From positions 9,525 through 73,524 of the forward strand of contig CANFYZ010000004.1 in NCBI GenBank assembly GCA_947451385.1: a stretch of 64,000 nucleotides of DNA. The letters run 5' to 3'. Origin of the DNA: Comamonadaceae bacterium (GTDB lineage Bacteria; Pseudomonadota; Gammaproteobacteria; Burkholderiales; Burkholderiaceae_C). Shown piece by piece: positions 49,161 to 56,554 of this stretch; position 1 is the first letter of the stretch, and each line of letters starts with the position of its first letter. Made by a program: the position numbers and the translations under genes. Below the pieces are notes generated by a model. The model worked only from the letters and a program-made list of their open reading frames with translations, ran no database searches and was not told where the DNA came from.

Positions 49161-49192
49161 GAAAGACGAAAGGCCGCATGTAGCGGCCTTTC
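49161..49192 (-). terminator. rho-independent terminator of the predicted tracrRNA
   Basis: Perfect 10-bp stem (49168-49177 and 49183-49192) with a 5-nt loop, followed on the minus strand by GTCTTTC. Lies 35-40 nt upstream of the pyrF start. Confidence 0.6.
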
Positions 49193-49266
49193 CATTTGGT
49201 GCATCCAGACTTTTGCAAGTCATCTGCTTGTTAGCGTCCAGAGCGCATTTCCCAATCGAATATGCG
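49161..49266 (-). ncRNA. tracrRNA: predicted tracrRNA of the type II-C system
   Basis: Plus strand 49239-49259 (CAGAGCGCATTTCCCAATCGA) is the exact reverse complement of 21 nt of the CRISPR repeat. Flanking GTT and GT matches (49230-49238) extend the pairing, with a 3-nt internal loop and a 1-nt bulge. Read on the minus strand, the anti-repeat is followed by a GACUU-GCAA-AAGUC hairpin (49208-49221). Next comes a 10-bp GC-rich hairpin GAAAGGCCGC-UACAU-GCGGCCUUUC (49168-49192) plus GUCUUUC. An extended -10 lies just upstream. The 5' and 3' ends are estimates. Confidence 0.7.
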
Positions 49267-49321: not shown

Positions 49322-52300
49322 ATGCAAAAGATGCGCTACCGCCTGGCGCTGGACCTGGGCTCCACCTCTCTGGGCTGGGCCCTGCTGCGGCTGAATGCAC
49401 AAGACGAGCCCTGCGCCGTCATCAAGGCCGGGGTGAGGATATTCAGCGATGGGCGCAATCCTAAAGACGGCTCATCTCTGGCCGTCAGCCGCCGCGAAGC
49501 ACGCGCCATGCGCCGTCGCCGTGACCGCCTGCTGAAGAGAAAGGGCCGCATGATGAAGACGCTTTTGGGGCACGGCTTTTTCCCACAAGACCTGGCAGCC
49601 CGCAAAGCCCTTGAGCGACTGGAGCCTCTTGCATTGCGTGCCAAAGGACTGGACCAGGCCCTGCAGCCCGCTGAATTTGCCCGCGCCTTATTTCACATCA
49701 ACCAACGTCGTGGCTTCAAAAGCAATCGCAAAACCGACAAGAAAGAAAACGACAGCAGCGCGCTTAAAAATGCCATCGGCCAGCTGCGCGAGGCCATGCA
49801 GGCCACAGGCTGCCGCACGGTGGGCGAATGGCTTTATGCCCGCCATCAAAACGGCTTGCCCATCCGGGCCCGCTACCGCGAAAATCGCACCACGCGAGAC
49901 GATGGCAAAACCAAAATCGAAAAGAGCTACGACCTCTACATCGACCGGGCCATGATTGAAGCCGAGTTCGATGCCCTGTGGAACAAACAGGCCGAACTCA
50001 ACCCTGTGCAATTTCACGAAATTGCCCGTGCCGAGCTCAAAGACTGTTTGCTGCACCAGCGCCCGCTCAAACCCGTGAAGCCGGGCCGTTGCACCCTCCT
50101 GCCTGAAGAAGAGCGCGCCCCACTGGCGCTGCCCAGCCAGCAGCGGTTTCGCATCTATCAAGAGGTCAATAACCTGCGTCTGATTCGTGAAGGTCTGACT
50201 GAGGAACCCCTCACACCAAGCCAACGTGACCAGGTGGTGCAGGCCCTTGAAACCAAGAACAAAGTCACTTTCACCCAGATCAAAAAGCTGTTGGGGTTTT
50301 CAGGTCAATTCAACCTCGAAGACGACAAACGCACCGAACTCAAAGGCAACGCCACCAGCGGCATCTTGAGCAAGAAAGAGCACTATGGGACCGCTTGGGC
50401 GGGCATGGACAAGCCTCTTCAAGACCGCATCGTCATGCAACTGCTCATTGAAGAAAACGAGGCCACACTCATTCAATGGTTGAAGGCCCACACGGACGTG
50501 GACGAGATCACCGCCGAGCGCATCGCCAACGCCGCACTGCCTGAGGGATACGGCAGCCTGTCGGCCAGGGCGCTCGAAAGAATCCTGCCTGAGTTACAAC
50601 GTGAAGTCATCACCTACGACAAAGCCGTGATCGCCGCAGGCTTTGACCACCACAGCCACATCAGCCACGCGGTCACTGGCGAAATACTGCCCGCCCTGCC
50701 CTATTACGGCGAATACCTGCAGCGCCATGTGGGCTTTGGCAGCGGCAAGCCTGAAGACCCATCCGAAAAGCGCTTCGGCAAGATCGCCAACCCCACCGTG
50801 CACATCGGCCTCAACCAGGTTCGCACCGTGGTCAATGCGCTCATCAAACGCTACGGCCACCCCAGTGAAGTGATTGTGGAAGTCGCTCGCGATCTCAAGC
50901 AAAGCCAGGAACAACGCAAAGAAGATCAAAAGCGCCAAGCCGACAACCAGCGCCGCAACGAACGCATGCGCGAGCAAATCGCTGGACTGTTGAACATCAG
51001 CCCAGAGCGGGTCAGAACTACCGACCTGCAAAAAATGATCCTCTGGGAAGAACTGCACCGCGACAACGCCGCCGACCGCCGCTGCCCCTACAGCGGCGTG
51101 CAAATCAGTGCGTCCATGCTGTTTTCAGACCAGGTGGAAATCGAGCACATCCTGCCGTTTTCAAAGACCCTGGACGACAGCCTGAACAACAAGACCGTCG
51201 CCATGCGCCAGGCCAACCGCATCAAAGGCGACCGCACCCCTTGGCAGGCCAAAGACGACTTTGCGGCCCAAGGCTGGACCCTAGCCGACATGCTGACCCG
51301 TGCCGAACTGATGCCCAAAAACAAACGCTACCGCTTTGGCGAAAACGGTTATGCCCAATGGCTGCGCGAAGACAAAGGGTTTTTGGCACGGGCACTCAAC
51401 GACACCCGCCATCTGAGCCGTGTGGCCAAGGAATACCTCAGCCTGATCTGCCCGCAAAACACCCGCGCCATTCCCGGGCAGATGACGGCCATGCTGCGTG
51501 CCAAATTTGGCCTCAACGACATCCTGGGCCTCGACGGCGAGAAAAACCGCAACGACCACCGCCACCACGCGGTGGATGCGTGTGTGATCGCCGTGACCGA
51601 CCAAGGCATGCTGCAGCGCTTTGCCAGCGCCAGTGCCAGCGCCCGCGAGCGCCAACTCAACAAACTGGTTGAGACCATGCCTCTGCCATGGGACAGCTAC
51701 CGCGAGCATGTGCAACGGGCCATCCACAACATCTGCGTCAGCCACAAACCCGACCACGGGCACGAAGGGGCCATGCACAACGACACGGCTTACGGCCTGC
51801 TGGGTAACGACCGGGTGCATGTGCGCAAAGTGGTTGACGGTCAGCGCGTGCGCGAAGAAAGCACGCTCAAGGTGATCCCCTTCAGCGACACCAAAGCCAC
51901 TGCCCGCCATGGCCTGCTGCCCGATGGGCAGCCTCGCCCCTACAAAGGCTACAAGGGCGACAGCAACTACTGCATCGAGATCGTGCGTAACGACAAAGGC
52001 AAATGGGAGGGCGAGGTCATTTCCACCTTCGAGGCCTATCAGTTGGTGCGCCAGGGCGGGGTCAAGCGCCTGCGCCACCCCACGCTCAGCTGCAGTGGCA
52101 AGGCGTTGGTAATGCGGTTGATGATTGATGACCTGGTCAAACTCCAATTAAACGATGACCGCCTCATGGTGGGACGCATTGCCACGATCAGCGGTAACGG
52201 TCAAATCTTCATGGCTGCGCACAACGAAGCCAATGTGGATTCACGCAACAGGGACAAAAATGATCCATTTGGATATGTCTCGAAGATGGCAGGTTCGCTA

Positions 52301-52372
52301 CAGAAGGCCCATGGTCGCAAAGTCAGCATCTCCCCCATCGGCGAGTTGCGCGACCCTGGATTCCGGGATTGA
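49322..52372 (+). CDS. cas9: type II-C CRISPR-associated endonuclease Cas9 (compact, 1016 aa)
   Basis: RuvC-I YRLALDLGSTSLGWA (Asp11 codon 49352-49354). Arg-rich bridge helix RREARAMRRRRDRLLKRKGR. RuvC-II VIVEVARD. HNH VEIEHILPFS..DDSLNNKTV..ANRIKGDRTP (His609 codon 51146-51148). RuvC-III NDHRHHAVDACV (Asp752 codon 51575-51577). cas1, cas2 and a 36-nt-repeat array follow, with no csn2 or cas4, so subtype II-C. Confidence 0.95.
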   Translation: MQKMRYRLALDLGSTSLGWALLRLNAQDEPCAVIKAGVRIFSDGRNPKDGSSLAVSRREARAMRRRRDRLLKRKGRMMKTLLGHGFFPQDLAARKALERLEPLALRAKGLDQALQPAEFARALFHINQRRGFKSNRKTDKKENDSSALKNAIGQLREAMQATGCRTVGEWLYARHQNGLPIRARYRENRTTRDDGKTKIEKSYDLYIDRAMIEAEFDALWNKQAELNPVQFHEIARAELKDCLLHQRPLKPVKPGRCTLLPEEERAPLALPSQQRFRIYQEVNNLRLIREGLTEEPLTPSQRDQVVQALETKNKVTFTQIKKLLGFSGQFNLEDDKRTELKGNATSGILSKKEHYGTAWAGMDKPLQDRIVMQLLIEENEATLIQWLKAHTDVDEITAERIANAALPEGYGSLSARALERILPELQREVITYDKAVIAAGFDHHSHISHAVTGEILPALPYYGEYLQRHVGFGSGKPEDPSEKRFGKIANPTVHIGLNQVRTVVNALIKRYGHPSEVIVEVARDLKQSQEQRKEDQKRQADNQRRNERMREQIAGLLNISPERVRTTDLQKMILWEELHRDNAADRRCPYSGVQISASMLFSDQVEIEHILPFSKTLDDSLNNKTVAMRQANRIKGDRTPWQAKDDFAAQGWTLADMLTRAELMPKNKRYRFGENGYAQWLREDKGFLARALNDTRHLSRVAKEYLSLICPQNTRAIPGQMTAMLRAKFGLNDILGLDGEKNRNDHRHHAVDACVIAVTDQGMLQRFASASASARERQLNKLVETMPLPWDSYREHVQRAIHNICVSHKPDHGHEGAMHNDTAYGLLGNDRVHVRKVVDGQRVREESTLKVIPFSDTKATARHGLLPDGQPRPYKGYKGDSNYCIEIVRNDKGKWEGEVISTFEAYQLVRQGGVKRLRHPTLSCSGKALVMRLMIDDLVKLQLNDDRLMVGRIATISGNGQIFMAAHNEANVDSRNRDKNDPFGYVSKMAGSLQKAHGRKVSISPIGELRDPGFRD

Positions 52373-52388
52373 ACCCGGCAGTATCTAA

Positions 52389-52718
52389 ATGGATACAATC
52401 AAGCCATTCCAGCTTGAGCAAACCTCGGTCTTCGTCCGTTGGCTCAAGAGCCTCAAAGACTTGCAGGCCAGAGCGGCGATCGTGCTGCGGCTCAAGCAGG
52501 TGCAGGCAGGTCACCTGGGCGATGCCAAAAGCGTGGGCGCTGGCGTGTCAGAACTGCGCTGGCATCTGGGGCCTGGCTACCGGGTGTACTTTTGCAGGCG
52601 CGGCCAGCACATCATCGTGTTGTTGGCCGGGGGTGACAAATCAACACAGGTGCGTGACATTGCACGCGCTAAACAACTGGCCAAGGAGCATGGGCATGGG
52701 CAAGACGACCGCATTTGA
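52389..52718 (+). CDS. RelE/ParE-superfamily toxin, HI1419 / phage Gp49-like 'addiction module killer protein'
   Basis: 109 aa. Sequence recalled as matching the TIGR02683/PF05973 family (GHLGDAKSVGAGVSELRWHLGPGYRVYFCRRGQHIIVLLAGGDKSTQVRDIARAKQLA). Toxin-first gene order as in HigBA. Starts 16 nt after the cas9 stop. Confidence 0.85.
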   Translation: MDTIKPFQLEQTSVFVRWLKSLKDLQARAAIVLRLKQVQAGHLGDAKSVGAGVSELRWHLGPGYRVYFCRRGQHIIVLLAGGDKSTQVRDIARAKQLAKEHGHGQDDRI

Positions 52719-52983
52719 TGCAGCAGACTACCTCGACAGCGAGGAAATGATTGCCGAATACCTGAACCAGGCGTTGGCCAGTGGCGACACCGACTTGCTG
52801 CTCGCCGCCATTGGCGATGTGGCCAGGGCCCGGGGCATGGCCCAAGTGGCACGCGACTCGGGGCTGGGACGCGAGAGCCTCTACAAAGCACTGACCGCCG
52901 GGGCCAAGCCCCGATTCGACACGGTGTACAAAGTGCTCCACGCTTTGGGGGTGCGCATACAGACCCAGCCCCTGGCCCACTGA
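52696..52983 (+). CDS. HI1420-type 'addiction module antidote protein' (HTH antitoxin)
   Basis: C-terminal part of track ORF 52369-52983. The ATG at 52696 lies 7 nt after AAGGAG (52683-52688); an alternative ATG is at 52690. The sequence FDAADYLDSEEMIAEYLNQAL...ARARGMAQVARDSGLGRESLYKAL...FDTVYKVLHALGVRI fits the TIGR02684-type family. Overlaps the toxin 3' end by 23 nt and ends 11 nt before cas1. Confidence 0.8.
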   Translation: MGKTTAFDAADYLDSEEMIAEYLNQALASGDTDLLLAAIGDVARARGMAQVARDSGLGRESLYKALTAGAKPRFDTVYKVLHALGVRIQTQPLAH

Positions 52984-52994
52984 CGGATCTGCAC

Positions 52995-53921
52995 ATGCTT
53001 GGCCGCATTGTCGAAGTCGCCAACGACAAGCGCCACCTGTCCATGTACAGGGGATTCATGCTGGTGCACAGCACCGGAGATGACCGGCAGGAAGTCGGTC
53101 GCGTCGCACTGGACGACATGAGCGCCCTCATCGCCAATGCCCATGGCCTGAGCTACACCAACAACTTGCTGGTCACGCTGGCCGAACGCGGCATACCCAT
53201 GGTGCTGTGCGCGGCCAACCACAATGTGGTGGGCATGCTTTGGCCTGTTGAGGGCCACCACCAGCAAGCTCACCGCATGGAAGCGCAGCTGGCCTGCAGC
53301 CTGCCCACCCGCAAACGACTGTGGGCCACCATCGTCAAATCCAAGCTACTCAACCAGGCCGCGGTACTGGCTGCCACCGGTGCCCCAGACGCACCACTTC
53401 GACAGCTGGCACGCCAGGTCAAGAGCGGCGACCCGGAAAACGCCGAAGCCCAAGGTGCCCGCAAATACTGGGGTCTGCTCATGGGGCCGCTGTTCAGACG
53501 TGACCAGCAAGCCGACGGTGTGAACGCCATGCTCAACTTCGGCTACACCGTGTTGCGGGCCGCTACGGCACGGGCGGTGGTGGCCGCGGGTCTGCACCCC
53601 AGTCTGGGCCTGCACCACAGCCACGACAACAATGCCATGCGGTTGGTAGACGACCTGATGGAGCCCTTTCGCCCTGTCATCGACTGGACCGTCTGGCAGC
53701 TGCAAAGCCAGGGCCCCTGCGTGGTCAACGCCGACACCAAACGGGCACTGGTGCAAAGTCTCTACCAGGACTTGAAGGGCAATGCGGGCACCACCCCTGT
53801 GCTGGTGGCAGTGCAAAAACTGGCCACCTCGCTGGCGCTGGTCATGGTGGGCGAGCGCGACAAACTGGACCTGCCGCACGCTGGCGTGCCCCAGCGCCAC
53901 ACCGAACCCGATGACGAATGA
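52995..53921 (+). CDS. cas1: type II CRISPR-associated endonuclease Cas1
   Basis: 308 aa, type II Cas1-like throughout (MLGRIVEVANDKRHLSMYRGFMLV..., NAMLNFGYTVLRA, GLHPSLGLHHSHDNNAMRLVDDLMEPFRP). Confidence 0.95.
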   Translation: MLGRIVEVANDKRHLSMYRGFMLVHSTGDDRQEVGRVALDDMSALIANAHGLSYTNNLLVTLAERGIPMVLCAANHNVVGMLWPVEGHHQQAHRMEAQLACSLPTRKRLWATIVKSKLLNQAAVLAATGAPDAPLRQLARQVKSGDPENAEAQGARKYWGLLMGPLFRRDQQADGVNAMLNFGYTVLRAATARAVVAAGLHPSLGLHHSHDNNAMRLVDDLMEPFRPVIDWTVWQLQSQGPCVVNADTKRALVQSLYQDLKGNAGTTPVLVAVQKLATSLALVMVGERDKLDLPHAGVPQRHTEPDDE

Positions 53922-54268
53922 GTCGCCGGGTCAAAACCTCACTCAGTGGCTACCGAATCATGTGGATGCTGGTGATGTTTGATTCGCCTGTGGTCACCGC
54001 CCCTGAGCGACTGGCAGCCAACCAGTTCAGACTCAGCCTATTGGACATAGGGTTTTTGCGATGCCAACTGAGCGTGTACATGCGCTTTTGCACCAGCGCA
54101 GCGCAAGTGCAAACGTATTGCCAGCGGGTGGAAGCGGTTCTGCCCAATGGCGGACAGGTCAACATCATGCAACTGACCGACAAGCAATACGAACGGGTGA
54201 TCAGTTTTCAGGGCCGCAAAGCGCAGCCTCCGAAAAAAACACCCGATCAATTCGATCTTTTTGGCTGA
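53918..54268 (+). CDS. cas2: type II CRISPR-associated endoribonuclease Cas2
   Basis: 116 aa with an ATGA overlap on the cas1 stop. LSGYRIMWMLVMFDSPV...QLSVYMRFC is typical of type II Cas2. Confidence 0.9.
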   Translation: MSRRVKTSLSGYRIMWMLVMFDSPVVTAPERLAANQFRLSLLDIGFLRCQLSVYMRFCTSAAQVQTYCQRVEAVLPNGGQVNIMQLTDKQYERVISFQGRKAQPPKKTPDQFDLFG

Positions 54269-54334: not shown

Positions 54335-54700
54335 AGTCTAGTCGATTGGGAAATGCGCTCTGACCGGAACAAAAGGCACAGCAGCCCCGCATTCAAGAAT
54401 AGTCTAGTCGATTGGGAAATGCGCTCTGACCGGAACATCACCAACACTCAGGTTTCTGGCCTTGGCAGTCTAGTCGATTGGGAAATGCGCTCTGACCGGA
54501 ACAGTTGTCGGGCCACTTGCGTTCAGTCATTTAGTCTAGTCGATTGGGAAATGCGCTCTGACCGGAACCACTGCCTGGATCGCTCCAAACGGCAACCAAG
54601 TCTAGTCGATTGGGAAATGCGCTCTGACCGGAACTATTCAAGTTGCTGGTAGATGAACAAGGCGAGTCTAGTCGATTGGGAAATGCGCTCTGACCGGATC
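54335..54700 (-). CRISPR. CRISPR array: six 36-nt repeats and five 30-nt spacers (transcribed strand inferred from the tracrRNA)
   Basis: Repeat AGTCTAGTCGATTGGGAAATGCGCTCTGACCGGAAC (plus-strand reading) starts at 54335, 54401, 54467, 54533, 54599 and 54665. Spacers are 54371-54400, 54437-54466, 54503-54532, 54569-54598 and 54635-54664. The last copy has one substitution (54699, A to T). The minus-strand reading starts GTTCCGG..., the usual GTT start of type II repeats. Confidence 0.95.
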
Positions 54701-54734: not shown

Positions 54735-55697
54735 ATGCCCGGCATGCACAAACTCTCACCCCGCCAATGGCTGATTTTGATTTTGCTCACCGTGATCTGG
54801 GGCATCAACTGGCCGGTCATGAAAATCGGCGTCACCGGCTTTCCGCCGCTGACCTTTCGCATGGTCTGTCTGATGATGGGCACGCCGGTGCTGGGCGTGG
54901 CGCTGCTGTTTTTGAAAGTGCCGCTGCGCATTGAGCGCCAGCACTGGCCCGAGTTGCTGATTTTGGCGCTGTTCAATATGTTCATTTGGCACGGCATGAT
55001 CATCATTGCGGTGCAGTCCCTGTCCAGCGGACGGGCGGCGATTTTGGGCTACACCATGCCCATGTTCTCGGCGGTGATCGGTGCGCTGTTCTTTGGCAAC
55101 CGCTTGCCCACCCGCGCCTGGGGCGGCGTGGCGGCGGCGACGCTGGGTGTGGTGCTGTTGCTGTGGCATGAGCTGACGAACTTGACTGGCAAGCCCGTTG
55201 GCGTATTGCTGGCCTTGATTGCGGCCAGCACCTGGGCCCTGGGGACGCAGCTGCTGCGGCGCACGCGCATGCCGGTGCCGACCTTGGCGATTTCGTTTTG
55301 GATGACGCTGATGACCACCGTGGTCATGAGCGTGCTGGCCTTCTTGTTGGAGCGCGACCAGTGGCACGCCCCTTCCGAAGCCAACTTCATGGCCATGGTG
55401 TTCAACGCGGTGCTGGTGTTTGGCTTTGCGCATGCGGCCTGGTTTTATTTGGCGCGCAGCTTGCCGCCGGTGGCGTCCACCTTGAGCGTGATGCTGATTC
55501 CGGTGCTGGGCGTGTTCAGCGGCGCGCTGTGGCTGGGCGAGGTGCTGCACTGGCAAGACTGGGCCGCCGTGGTGCTGATGGTGGTGTCTATTTGCTCGGT
55601 ACTGTGGCCCACGGCCACACCTTCGCCAGCGGCTGAATCAGAGGCCGACGGTGCAAGTGATTCTGGGCGAGGCGAAAAACCGCGCAGCGTGGACTAA
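54735..55697 (+). CDS. EamA/DMT family transporter
   Basis: 320 aa, 10-TM-like, two EamA-type halves. The C-terminal tail is non-conserved. Confidence 0.8.
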   Translation: MPGMHKLSPRQWLILILLTVIWGINWPVMKIGVTGFPPLTFRMVCLMMGTPVLGVALLFLKVPLRIERQHWPELLILALFNMFIWHGMIIIAVQSLSSGRAAILGYTMPMFSAVIGALFFGNRLPTRAWGGVAAATLGVVLLLWHELTNLTGKPVGVLLALIAASTWALGTQLLRRTRMPVPTLAISFWMTLMTTVVMSVLAFLLERDQWHAPSEANFMAMVFNAVLVFGFAHAAWFYLARSLPPVASTLSVMLIPVLGVFSGALWLGEVLHWQDWAAVVLMVVSICSVLWPTATPSPAAESEADGASDSGRGEKPRSVD

Positions 55698-56554
55698 CTG
55701 CCGCCCTGCACCACTTGCAAGGCCAGGCACAAATCGGCCCAGGCTTTGCCTTTGTCGCTGGTGTTGCGCAGCAAGTAGGCAGGCGGGTAGGTCACGACCA
55801 CGGGCACGCCTTGGTAGTGGTGCACCTGGCCGCGCAGCTTGCCCAGCGGCTCGGTGCTTTGCAGCAGCGATTGCATGGCAAAACGCCCCATCACCAAAAT
55901 CACGCGCGGTTGTACCAGCGCCACTTTGCGCGACACATAGGCGGCGCAGCGGCGCAACTCTTCGGGTGCAGGGTTACGCGCATCGGGCGTGGCGCATTGC
56001 GTGGCATGCGTGAGGTAAGCGCCTTGTGCGCCCTCACCTGCGCGGCTCACGCCCACGGCTTTGAGCATGTTGTCCAGCAAGCGCCCCGCGTCGCCCGCAA
56101 AGGGTTGGCCTGTCGCGTTTTCCGCGTCGCCTGGGGCATCGCCCAGCACCAGCCAGTCAGCGTTCAGGCTGCCCGCGCCAAACACGCTGTGCTGGCGCTG
56201 TGCGCACAGGCCGCAGGCCTGGCAACTGGCCGCAGTGGTTTGCAGCGCGGTCCAATCCATCTCGGCCAAATCGGCCGACAGAGGGGGGTGCGCGGCATCA
56301 GGTTCGGGTTGGGTGGGTGGCGCTGGAGGGGGAGCTGTTCTGGCGGGTGTCGATGTGGGCGCGGGCGCGGGTGCAGGTGCAGGTGCAGGTGCAGGTGCAG
56401 GTGCAGGTGCTGGTGCAGGTGCTGGTGCGGGTGCTGGTGCGGGTGCGGCATCCACGGCTGCAGGGGCCCACACGCGCACACCCATTTCGGCCAGCATGGC
56501 GCGTTGACGTTCGTCCAAATCAAAGCGGGTGGGGTCGTTCATGGCCTCAGGCAT
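55694..56554 (-). CDS. uracil-DNA glycosylase, family 4 (Fe-S type) with an N-terminal Pro/Ala-rich extension
   Basis: C-terminal UDG4 core (CQACGLC...WLVLGDAPGDAE...GQPFAGDAG...). Lies downstream of tsaB-rimI, a commonly seen arrangement. Confidence 0.8.
   Translation of the reverse strand: MPEAMNDPTRFDLDERQRAMLAEMGVRVWAPAAVDAAPAPAPAPAPAPAPAPAPAPAPAPAPAPAPTSTPARTAPPPAPPTQPEPDAAHPPLSADLAEMDWTALQTTAASCQACGLCAQRQHSVFGAGSLNADWLVLGDAPGDAENATGQPFAGDAGRLLDNMLKAVGVSRAGEGAQGAYLTHATQCATPDARNPAPEELRRCAAYVSRKVALVQPRVILVMGRFAMQSLLQSTEPLGKLRGQVHHYQGVPVVVTYPPAYLLRNTSDKGKAWADLCLALQVVQGGS
56359..56448. repeat. imperfect hexanucleotide tandem repeat (GGTGCN)n encoding (Pro-Ala)n
   Basis: About 15 consecutive GGTGCA/GGTGCT/GGTGCG units on the plus strand. 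On the minus strand they translate to APAPAP... inside the UDG gene. Confidence 0.85.

Follow-up and report, generated by a model that had tools for sequence, protein, structure and literature searches.

A HigBA-like toxin-antitoxin pair between cas9 and cas1 as a candidate addiction cassette of a type II-C CRISPR-Cas module in Limnohabitans-type bacteria

Introduction

In the Sulfolobales, vapBC toxin-antitoxin (TA) pairs are interspersed among CRISPR-Cas modules, and roles in regulation or in maintenance of the locus have been proposed for them. CreTA combines an RNA toxin with a CRISPR RNA (crRNA)-like antitoxin that needs Cascade; cells are addicted to the effector, and the module safeguards type I systems (PMC9458426, PMC12737573). 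In CCTA, the type II TA system HicAB is integrated with Cas13a, and a direct interaction of Cas13a with HicB has been shown (PMC13448076). PezAT, likewise a type II TA pair, is joined to a Hachiman defence operon and represses Hachiman (PMC13064477), and a general coupling of immunity to dormancy has been put forward as a hypothesis (PMC3506569). Here, we analyze a stretch of 64,000 nucleotides from a Comamonadaceae bacterium (assembly GCA_947451385.1, contig CANFYZ010000004.1, positions 9,525 to 73,524; referred to as the window), in which a HigBA-like TA pair is located within a type II-C cas operon, between cas9 and cas1 (52389-52983).

The pair resembles CreTA in that a TA module is nested in a cas operon and loss of the CRISPR-Cas locus is expected to be penalised. 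In contrast to CreTA, both partners are proteins, and neutralisation would not need Cas9. No degenerate or ectopic repeat of the CreTA type was found near the pair; the only repeat-like sequences of the window are the array and the anti-repeat of the trans-activating crRNA (tracrRNA). The CreTA-like addiction suggested in a preliminary description of this DNA may thus hold at the level of the outcome, but not in its parts, as there is no RNA antitoxin, no ectopic repeat and no evidence for Cas9 dependence, and we regard the analogy as a functional one only. With CCTA the locus shares a type II TA pair within a class 2 CRISPR locus that is conserved in a sub-lineage, whereas TA family, CRISPR type and gene order differ and no Cas-antitoxin interaction is indicated in the window. 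The likeness to PezAT-Hachiman consists of a TA pair joined to a defence operon in one sub-lineage and of a proposed role in regulation or maintenance; both the defence system and the TA family differ. Finally, the vapBC pairs of the Sulfolobales lie between modules and belong to other TA families, whereas the window pair lies inside the operon. In the literature searched, which omits most subscription papers, no TA pair located between cas9 and cas1 was described, in agreement with the preliminary description, according to which no characterised type II example is known. Associations of TA pairs with CRISPR-Cas or other defence systems are already known (CreTA, HicAB-Cas13a, PezAT-Hachiman).

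A toxin-first HigBA-like pair within the cas operon

According to the open reading frame (ORF) list and the sequence, the gene order is cas9-toxin-antitoxin-cas1-cas2-array, with all genes in the same orientation. The toxin gene (52389..52718, plus strand) encodes a HigB-like, RelE/ParE-fold protein of 109 aa from the HI1419/Gp49 family, and the antitoxin gene (52696..52983, plus strand) a HigA-like protein of 95 aa, which belongs to the HI1420 family and has a helix-turn-helix domain. The toxin ATG follows the cas9 stop codon after 16 nt and the cas1 ATG follows the antitoxin stop codon after 11 nt. Two in-frame ATGs are present in the antitoxin frame, at 52690 and 52696, which correspond to an overlap with the toxin gene of 29 nt and 23 nt, respectively. 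The second one is located 7 nt 3' of a Shine-Dalgarno motif AAGGAG, which lies inside the toxin gene at its 3' end (52683..52688, plus strand), and matches the start of the homologues in the alignment. With ATG 52696 taken as the antitoxin start, the 23-nt overlap reported in the preliminary description holds, and its other coordinates for the two additional genes agree with ours.

Searches with hidden Markov models scored the toxin at 127.1 bits against TIGR02683 upstrm_HI1419 (cut-off 62.85) and at 30.7 bits against PF05973 Gp49 (cut-off 23.9), and the antitoxin at 120.8 bits against TIGR02684 (cut-off 53.7) and at 142.6 bits against PF21716 (cut-off 27), with a sub-threshold match to HTH_3. 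The family assignments of the preliminary description are therefore confirmed, with scores roughly double the curated thresholds for TIGR02683 and TIGR02684. The nearest solved relative of the toxin is HigB1 of Mycobacterium tuberculosis (7nbu, E 7e-6), and the antitoxin weakly matches the HigA structure 6af3. By its sequence, the pair is a HigBA-like type II TA system with the toxin first, as had been proposed, and the toxin is predicted to be a RelE-fold RNase, which would arrest growth through ribosome-dependent mRNA cleavage and be neutralised by its cognate antitoxin. Neither protein matched a PADLOC defence model.

The architecture is that of a HigBA operon (TIGR02683/TIGR02684; PF05973/PF21716; e.g. 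M. tuberculosis HigB1): the two genes are adjacent, co-oriented and overlapping, the gene of the RelE/ParE-fold toxin lies upstream of that of the helix-turn-helix antitoxin, and a palindromic operator is found at the 5' end. The overlap of this operator with a -10 element and the existence of plasmid-borne relatives are shared with the family as well. What distinguishes the window cassette from the family is the absence of an own -35 element, a start codon inside the operator and the position wedged between cas9 and cas1. An autonomous HigBA promoter, with both a -35 and a -10 element upstream of the toxin, is not present in the window.

Recurrence in a Limnohabitans-type clade

A Cas9-seeded scan with one genome per species yielded 80 type II-C loci and a metagenome scan seeded with a second Cas9 another 80 loci (L numbers in the following). 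The number of Cas9 relatives as a whole exceeds 6,000. The content of the cas9-cas1 junction was read for each locus by tblastn together with ORF inspection. On the Cas9 tree, the window was placed in a Limnohabitans-type clade of 60 loci, which were dereplicated to 46 lineages, 43 of them informative. The pair lineage of the window, designated TA(A), occupies the cas9/cas1 junction in 24 lineages; four contain a remnant (L128, L006, L133 and L131), 15 have no pair and the remaining three end at a contig edge. This arrangement is far beyond chance, given the same junction in dozens of independent contigs, and a recurrence in 24 of 43 informative lineages clearly contradicts a one-off insertion, which the preliminary description had named as the finding that would speak against it. 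Lineages with the pair are spread over both main branches, and intermediates of decay are visible. One old capture of TA(A), followed by repeated loss, would be the simplest history.

A similar picture emerged from six close homologues of the antitoxin on long contigs (74-89% identity). Five of them adjoin cas genes, four in the order cas9-TA-cas1-cas2 and one (L187) with the toxin separated from cas9 by an insertion sequence (IS) element. For the sixth, a solitary antitoxin, no cas gene is nearby. The cas-linked homologues are found in several different chromosomal neighbourhoods, and therefore the module moves as a unit. Cultured strains are represented as well: Limnohabitans planktonicus II-D5 carries the pair, 2KL-17 a remnant, and in Jir61 the junction is TA-less while a TA pair is present upstream of cas9.

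In two loci (L008 and L080), a Cas9 from within the TA-bearing clade is combined with an empty junction and a Cas1 that is only 68-71% identical to that of the window, compared to a clade norm of 73-94%. This combination suggests recombination at the cas9|cas1 boundary, by which cas1-cas2 was swapped and the TA pair removed.

Selection and co-inheritance

Across 18 TA(A) loci, the ratio of non-synonymous to synonymous substitution rates (dN/dS) was 0.124 for the toxin and 0.084 for the antitoxin, next to 0.115 for cas9, 0.083 for cas1 and 0.062 for cas2; dS was similar and saturated for all five genes (1.1-1.5). Toxin and antitoxin are under purifying selection, like the cas genes. In Mantel tests, the pairwise protein distances of toxin and antitoxin correlated with the Cas9 and Cas1 distances (r = 0.55-0.74, p <= 0.001) as strongly as the latter two did with each other (0.66). 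The pair co-diverges with Cas9 and Cas1 and thus has the properties of a conserved accessory module. Arrays are present in loci with and without the pair alike, and no difference in array size was visible between the two groups. Moreover, near-identical TA-bearing loci differ by one repeat, and therefore adaptation works.

Operator conservation and loss of the -35 element

An operator-like palindrome GTATC-N6-GATAC is located at the start of the toxin gene (52381..52396, plus strand), with the toxin ATG (52389-52391) inside its spacer. It is unique in the window, compared to 0.08 occurrences expected by chance. The same palindrome, followed by AAT, is found at the toxin start in every locus of TA(A), of a second HI1419/HI1420 lineage designated TA(B) and of the L180-186 group, as well as in a Burkholderia plasmid homologue, and its bases are kept whether they are coding or non-coding. 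No second operator was found at the cas9 promoter or elsewhere. The proposal that the helix-turn-helix antitoxin regulates cas9 directly is not supported by this distribution, as the operator occurs only once per locus and at the toxin start.

Free-standing relatives of the pair (L184, L181, plasmid NC_008545) have a -35 element, an operator overlapping the -10 element and an ATG about 4-7 nt 3' of the latter. The promoter reads TTGACA-16-TACAAT in L184 and TTGAAC-17-TACTAT on the Burkholderia cenocepacia plasmid NC_008545, where the ATG follows 7 nt after the -10 element. For L180 and L181 this distance from TACAAT is 4 nt, which is compatible with a leaderless mRNA. At the TA(A) loci, the cas9 3' end and a spacer of variable length (8-23 nt) stand in place of the -35 element; the match to a -35 element is 1-3 of six positions in most of them and at best 3/6 in the window. 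The -10 hexamer persists as a residual TACAAT (52394..52399, plus strand) within toxin codons 2-4. Here, the toxin ORF runs upstream through the hexamer to an A/GTG start within the palindrome spacer, and there is no in-frame start downstream of the -10 element. As the only toxin start lies upstream of the residual -10, the toxin would be translated only from transcripts initiated further upstream, most simply from the cas9 mRNA. A comparable shift is seen in TA(B) loci of the L031 type, where the ATG overlaps the -10 element, although the -35 element is kept at 4/6 (TTTGCA). An (A/G)AGGA(G/A) Shine-Dalgarno motif of the antitoxin is kept in all TA(A) loci, and the toxin is without such a motif.

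A consensus scan detected no promoter-like site on the plus strand between 49000 and 55000 and no terminator-like site in the cas9/toxin or the antitoxin/cas1 gap, which confirms the visual impression of the preliminary description. A single terminator-like site within the toxin ORF (52571-52585) is at chance level (11 found compared to 7.8 +/- 2.9 expected). We infer from this comparative anatomy, above all from the lost -35 element and the start codon upstream of the residual -10, that the pair is co-transcribed from the cas9 promoter, which backs the earlier proposal of co-transcription with the cas genes. A transcript starting at the residual TACAAT would yield an RNA for the antitoxin and cas1-cas2 only.

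Toxin-first decay and ghost loci

In all four independent series of decay (L128; L006; the L133/L131 lineage; L176-179), the toxin decayed first; contig ends aside, no locus retained the toxin alone. Such an order would be expected of an active toxin. Only the antitoxin is left in L128, where the toxin is reduced to its last 16 codons. L006 and L133 retain a truncated antitoxin only, and L131 an unrecognisable insert of 237 nt.

Close relatives of TA(B) outside cas operons are ghost CRISPR loci. In L181-183 (L181:3473-4307), an intact TA pair is preceded by the last ~65 nt of cas9, and the cas genes are gone. These loci share 83% nucleotide identity with L180 over the cas9 3' end and the pair, the peptide encoded by the remnant (SKARRVTISAVSELRDTGVAE) can be aligned to the C-terminus of Cas9 (AKARRVTISPIGDLRDPGFAE), and AMP-binding and CBS-domain genes flank both L180 and L181-183. 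In L176-179 (L176:3813-4422), a cas9 3' remnant is followed by an internally deleted toxin, an intact antitoxin and the first ~40 nt of cas1; in addition, a stretch of 32 nt matches the region 3' of cas2 in L031. Disruption of the cas genes next to an intact pair was found in two further cases. In L081-83 (L081:5288-5904), directly 3' of the intact pair, cas1 carries an internal deletion of ~315 nt and a frameshift; the deletion was present in three independent samples, and the array still has 11 repeats. In L187 (2398-3549), the IS element, an IS630-like transposase (HTH_28/HTH_29), lies between a frameshifted cas9 and an intact operator-TA-cas1-cas2 segment.

An apparent truncation of cas9 beside an intact pair in L083-86 was rejected, as it is a scaffold gap of N's. 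The short cas9-cas1 spacers of L003, L014 and L018 were aligned globally to the TA region in search of deletion scars; this alignment was too permissive for a firm result, and only the 3' junction of L003 looks plausibly homologous. As a separate observation, an orphan antitoxin in an AT-rich genome (L191:3940-4291) is 79% identical to that of the window, with the toxin wholly deleted. It has the GTATC-N6-GATAC/TACAAT operator directly upstream, and 1.5 kb away there is another pair from this family, which is divergent.

Further TA pairs at the cas9-cas1 junction

Outside the Limnohabitans-type clade, the distance from the cas9 stop to the cas1 start is -4 to 8 nt in 94 of 99 informative dereplicated lineages, and all five exceptions are TA pairs (L031, L054, L075, L180 and L040). 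Three of these (L031, L054 and L075) carry TA(B), whose toxin is only 44-52% identical to that of TA(A), and L180 has a TA(B)-like pair beside a distant Cas9 of 1076 aa. The fifth, from a metagenome-assembled Rhodoferax genome (L040, 9060-9582; JANYJD010000329.1), is an unrelated pair. Its toxin is BrnT (PF04365, 83.7 bits), the partner of 85 aa has no Pfam match, and the cas9 stop overlaps the brnT ATG; on the tree, L040 is nested among TA(B) loci. Taken over about 145 informative lineages, inserts of more than 30 nt at the cas9/cas1 junction are without exception TA pairs or what is left of them.

TA(A) and TA(B) are not sisters in an antitoxin tree including 50%-cluster representatives, and the toxins are far more diverged than the Cas9s. 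We therefore propose at least three captures: TA(A), TA(B)/L180 and BrnT. The shared GTATC-N6-GATAC operator was considered as a sign of one common origin of TA(A) and TA(B) and dismissed: it is also present in the Burkholderia plasmid TA pair and in the free-standing L184 and is therefore a family trait. Members of the family are borne on conjugative Burkholderia plasmids, and no related DNA was found in phage genomes.

Pairs of the HI1419/HI1420 family were also observed just upstream of tracrRNA/cas9 in L004 (4997-5634), L139 (2236-2801) and L060 (3812-4442), in all three cases with an empty cas9|cas1 junction. The L060 pair has a palindrome of its own, GTAGCC-CATG-GGCTAC, overlapping TACAAT. 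A lone antitoxin gene of the PhdYeFM family is located directly 3' of the CRISPR array in L093 (6988-7242) and L094, at a TA(A)-bearing locus.

Interpretation and alternative explanations

The reading that we prefer, with a probability of roughly 0.5, is that the pair is an operon-internal, co-inherited addiction cassette of a mobile type II-C module, which was captured in a Limnohabitans-type ancestor and whose expression is tied to upstream transcription. A HigBA-like cassette would have been captured at the cas9|cas1 junction in the ancestor of this lineage and passed on ever since as a component within the cas9-TA-cas1-cas2-array module. With the -35 element of the family lost, the toxin would be read from upstream transcripts, most simply the cas9 mRNA, and this RNA would also serve for translation of the antitoxin, with its strong Shine-Dalgarno motif. 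GTATC-N6-GATAC at the cas9/toxin junction is the presumed binding site of the antitoxin or of the TA complex. If the segment were deleted or silenced, the labile antitoxin would decay and the RNase toxin would arrest growth. The centre of the operon would thus be hard to lose in one step, which would favour retention and spread of the module, and silencing of the operon would be penalised as well, if expression depends on the cas9 promoter. Family membership, operon anatomy, conservation, co-divergence and the patterns of decay are established by the sequences, whereas transcription together with cas9, binding to the operator, toxicity and a stabilising role are deduced from them. In view of the ghost loci, the cassette would be described best as a self-preserving addiction module and not as an absolute guard of the cas genes.

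Several observations weigh against this reading. In 15 of the 43 informative clade lineages the pair is absent and cas9, cas1, cas2 and arrays are intact; the pair can therefore be dispensed with, and over evolutionary time it is often lost. In the ghost loci, cas genes were deleted around a retained pair, and protection of the cas genes is therefore at best partial. Thus, the addiction to the CRISPR locus envisaged in the preliminary description would at least not protect the cas genes reliably. In addition, the retained TACAAT could drive -35-independent transcription, the -35 element kept in TA(B) makes autonomous expression possible there, and in L187 the IS630-like element splits cas9 from an intact pair. 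Lastly, TA pairs are abundant and mobile in defence islands, so that their long retention could be selfish persistence alone.

This last point leads to an explanation that we hold to be unlikely but worth serious consideration, namely that the pair is a purely selfish hitchhiker, a mobile TA system that landed at one of the operon's few permissive sites between genes, persists only as it is hard to lose and affects neither the retention nor the expression or function of CRISPR-Cas. Pairs of the same family just outside type II-C loci (L004/L139, L060) and the PhdYeFM antitoxin after the L093 array would be expected from such an element, as would the loss of the pair in 15 lineages whose cas genes show no visible damage, its survival after deletion of the cas genes and the lack of a PADLOC match. 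It accounts less well for the lost -35 element and the moved start codon, which tie toxin expression to upstream transcription, for a co-divergence with the cas genes that reaches past dS saturation and for the presence of unrelated TA families at exactly the same junction. Furthermore, any operon-internal TA pair mechanically penalises deletions that span it, so that a retention effect of zero is unlikely. The apparent dependence of the toxin on operon transcription would also fit a back-up arm for abortive infection, in which a shut-off of host or cas transcription by phage, or a failure of immunity through Cas9, would deplete the antitoxin and the infected cell would be arrested by the RNase toxin, coupling adaptive immunity to dormancy. 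Precedents for such a coupling are HicAB/Cas13a (PMC13448076) and the immunity-dormancy hypothesis (PMC3506569). We consider this role quite improbable for the window pair, as no defence model of PADLOC was matched, members of this TA family are frequent on plasmids and chromosomes that lack cas genes, and nothing ties activation of the toxin specifically to Cas9.

A shade less probable still is a function as a regulatory insert, with the operator-bound antitoxin or TA complex acting as a roadblock or attenuator that sets the level of cas1-cas2 relative to cas9. The operator does lie in the path of read-through transcription, the cas1 start follows 4-15 nt after the antitoxin stop, so that its translation is probably coupled to that of the antitoxin, and PezAT repressing Hachiman is a precedent (PMC13064477). 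However, array sizes are similar with and without the pair, near-identical TA-bearing loci one repeat apart show that adaptation works, the operator is a family-wide autoregulatory site and not specific for cas genes, and the cas9 promoter has no second operator. We give hardly any credence to a direct physical or functional partnership with Cas9 or Cas1-Cas2 in the manner of the Cas13a-HicB complex. Tight genomic linkage and co-divergence speak for it and nothing else does, whereas the BrnT pair and the second HigBA-like lineage at the same site argue against a specific protein-protein interface, and TA pairs function or persist without cas genes. A coupling of the toxin to interference or adaptation, as raised before, is pure speculation.

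The addiction-cassette reading can be extended, albeit tentatively and with the odds in our view clearly against it, to type II-C operons in general. These would have convergently recruited unrelated RNase TA pairs at cas9|cas1, HigBA-like ones at least twice and BrnT once. In long-lived lineages the toxin would have been rewired to the cas9 promoter, resulting in a protein counterpart of CreTA and in addiction to continued cas transcription, not merely to the presence of the DNA. Such cassettes could spread by homologous recombination via the conserved ends of cas9 and cas1 on either side.

The locus bears on the question of how costly and often-lost CRISPR-Cas systems are retained, which CreTA has answered for some type I systems by means of RNA. 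Inherited across a freshwater-bacterial lineage, it offers a testable, protein-based case of a CRISPR system that may carry its own addiction module. Loci with the pair, with the pair lost, with toxin-first decay and with only the pair left as a ghost together resemble a natural experiment, and the cultured strains cover three of the states. Whether CRISPR operons are stabilised or monitored by TA pairs thereby becomes a directly testable hypothesis for class 2, and it is of relevance for building self-stabilising Cas9 cassettes. Even if the pair were only a selfish passenger, the cas9|cas1 junction accepts TA pairs and, in our sample, nothing else.

Remaining features of the window

The surrounding locus comprises cas9, cas1, cas2, a tracrRNA and an array, as expected of type II-C, with the TA pair as the sole extra genes, and the identities of Cas9, Cas1 and Cas2 were confirmed by family models. 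Cas9 (49322..52372, plus strand) is a type II-C protein of 1016 aa with HNH_4, RuvC_III and Cas9_a domains (TIGR01865, 631 bits). The cas1 gene (52995..53921, plus strand) encodes 308 aa of the type II form (cas1_NMENI; TIGR03639, 231.7 bits) and overlaps by 4 nt with cas2 (53918..54268, plus strand; 116 aa). The array (54335..54700, strand undefined) consists of six 36-nt repeats and five 30-nt spacers. A tracrRNA is predicted on the minus strand, divergent from cas9 (49165..49262), with the anti-repeat at ~49237-49257, followed by a terminator hairpin (GGCCGCTACATGCGGCC) and a T-tract; with these elements in place, the type II-C system is complete. The anti-repeat is the single repeat-like match outside the array in the window (2 mismatches). 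It has the same sense as the plus-strand repeat, and therefore the crRNAs must be minus-strand transcripts that run towards cas2.

In crRNA orientation, the array repeat ends with TAGACT, which may be a repeat-internal -10 element of the kind known from other II-C systems. Further downstream, a 286-aa ORF on the minus strand (55694-56554) contains a long (AP)n low-complexity run, with a local GC content of up to 0.70.

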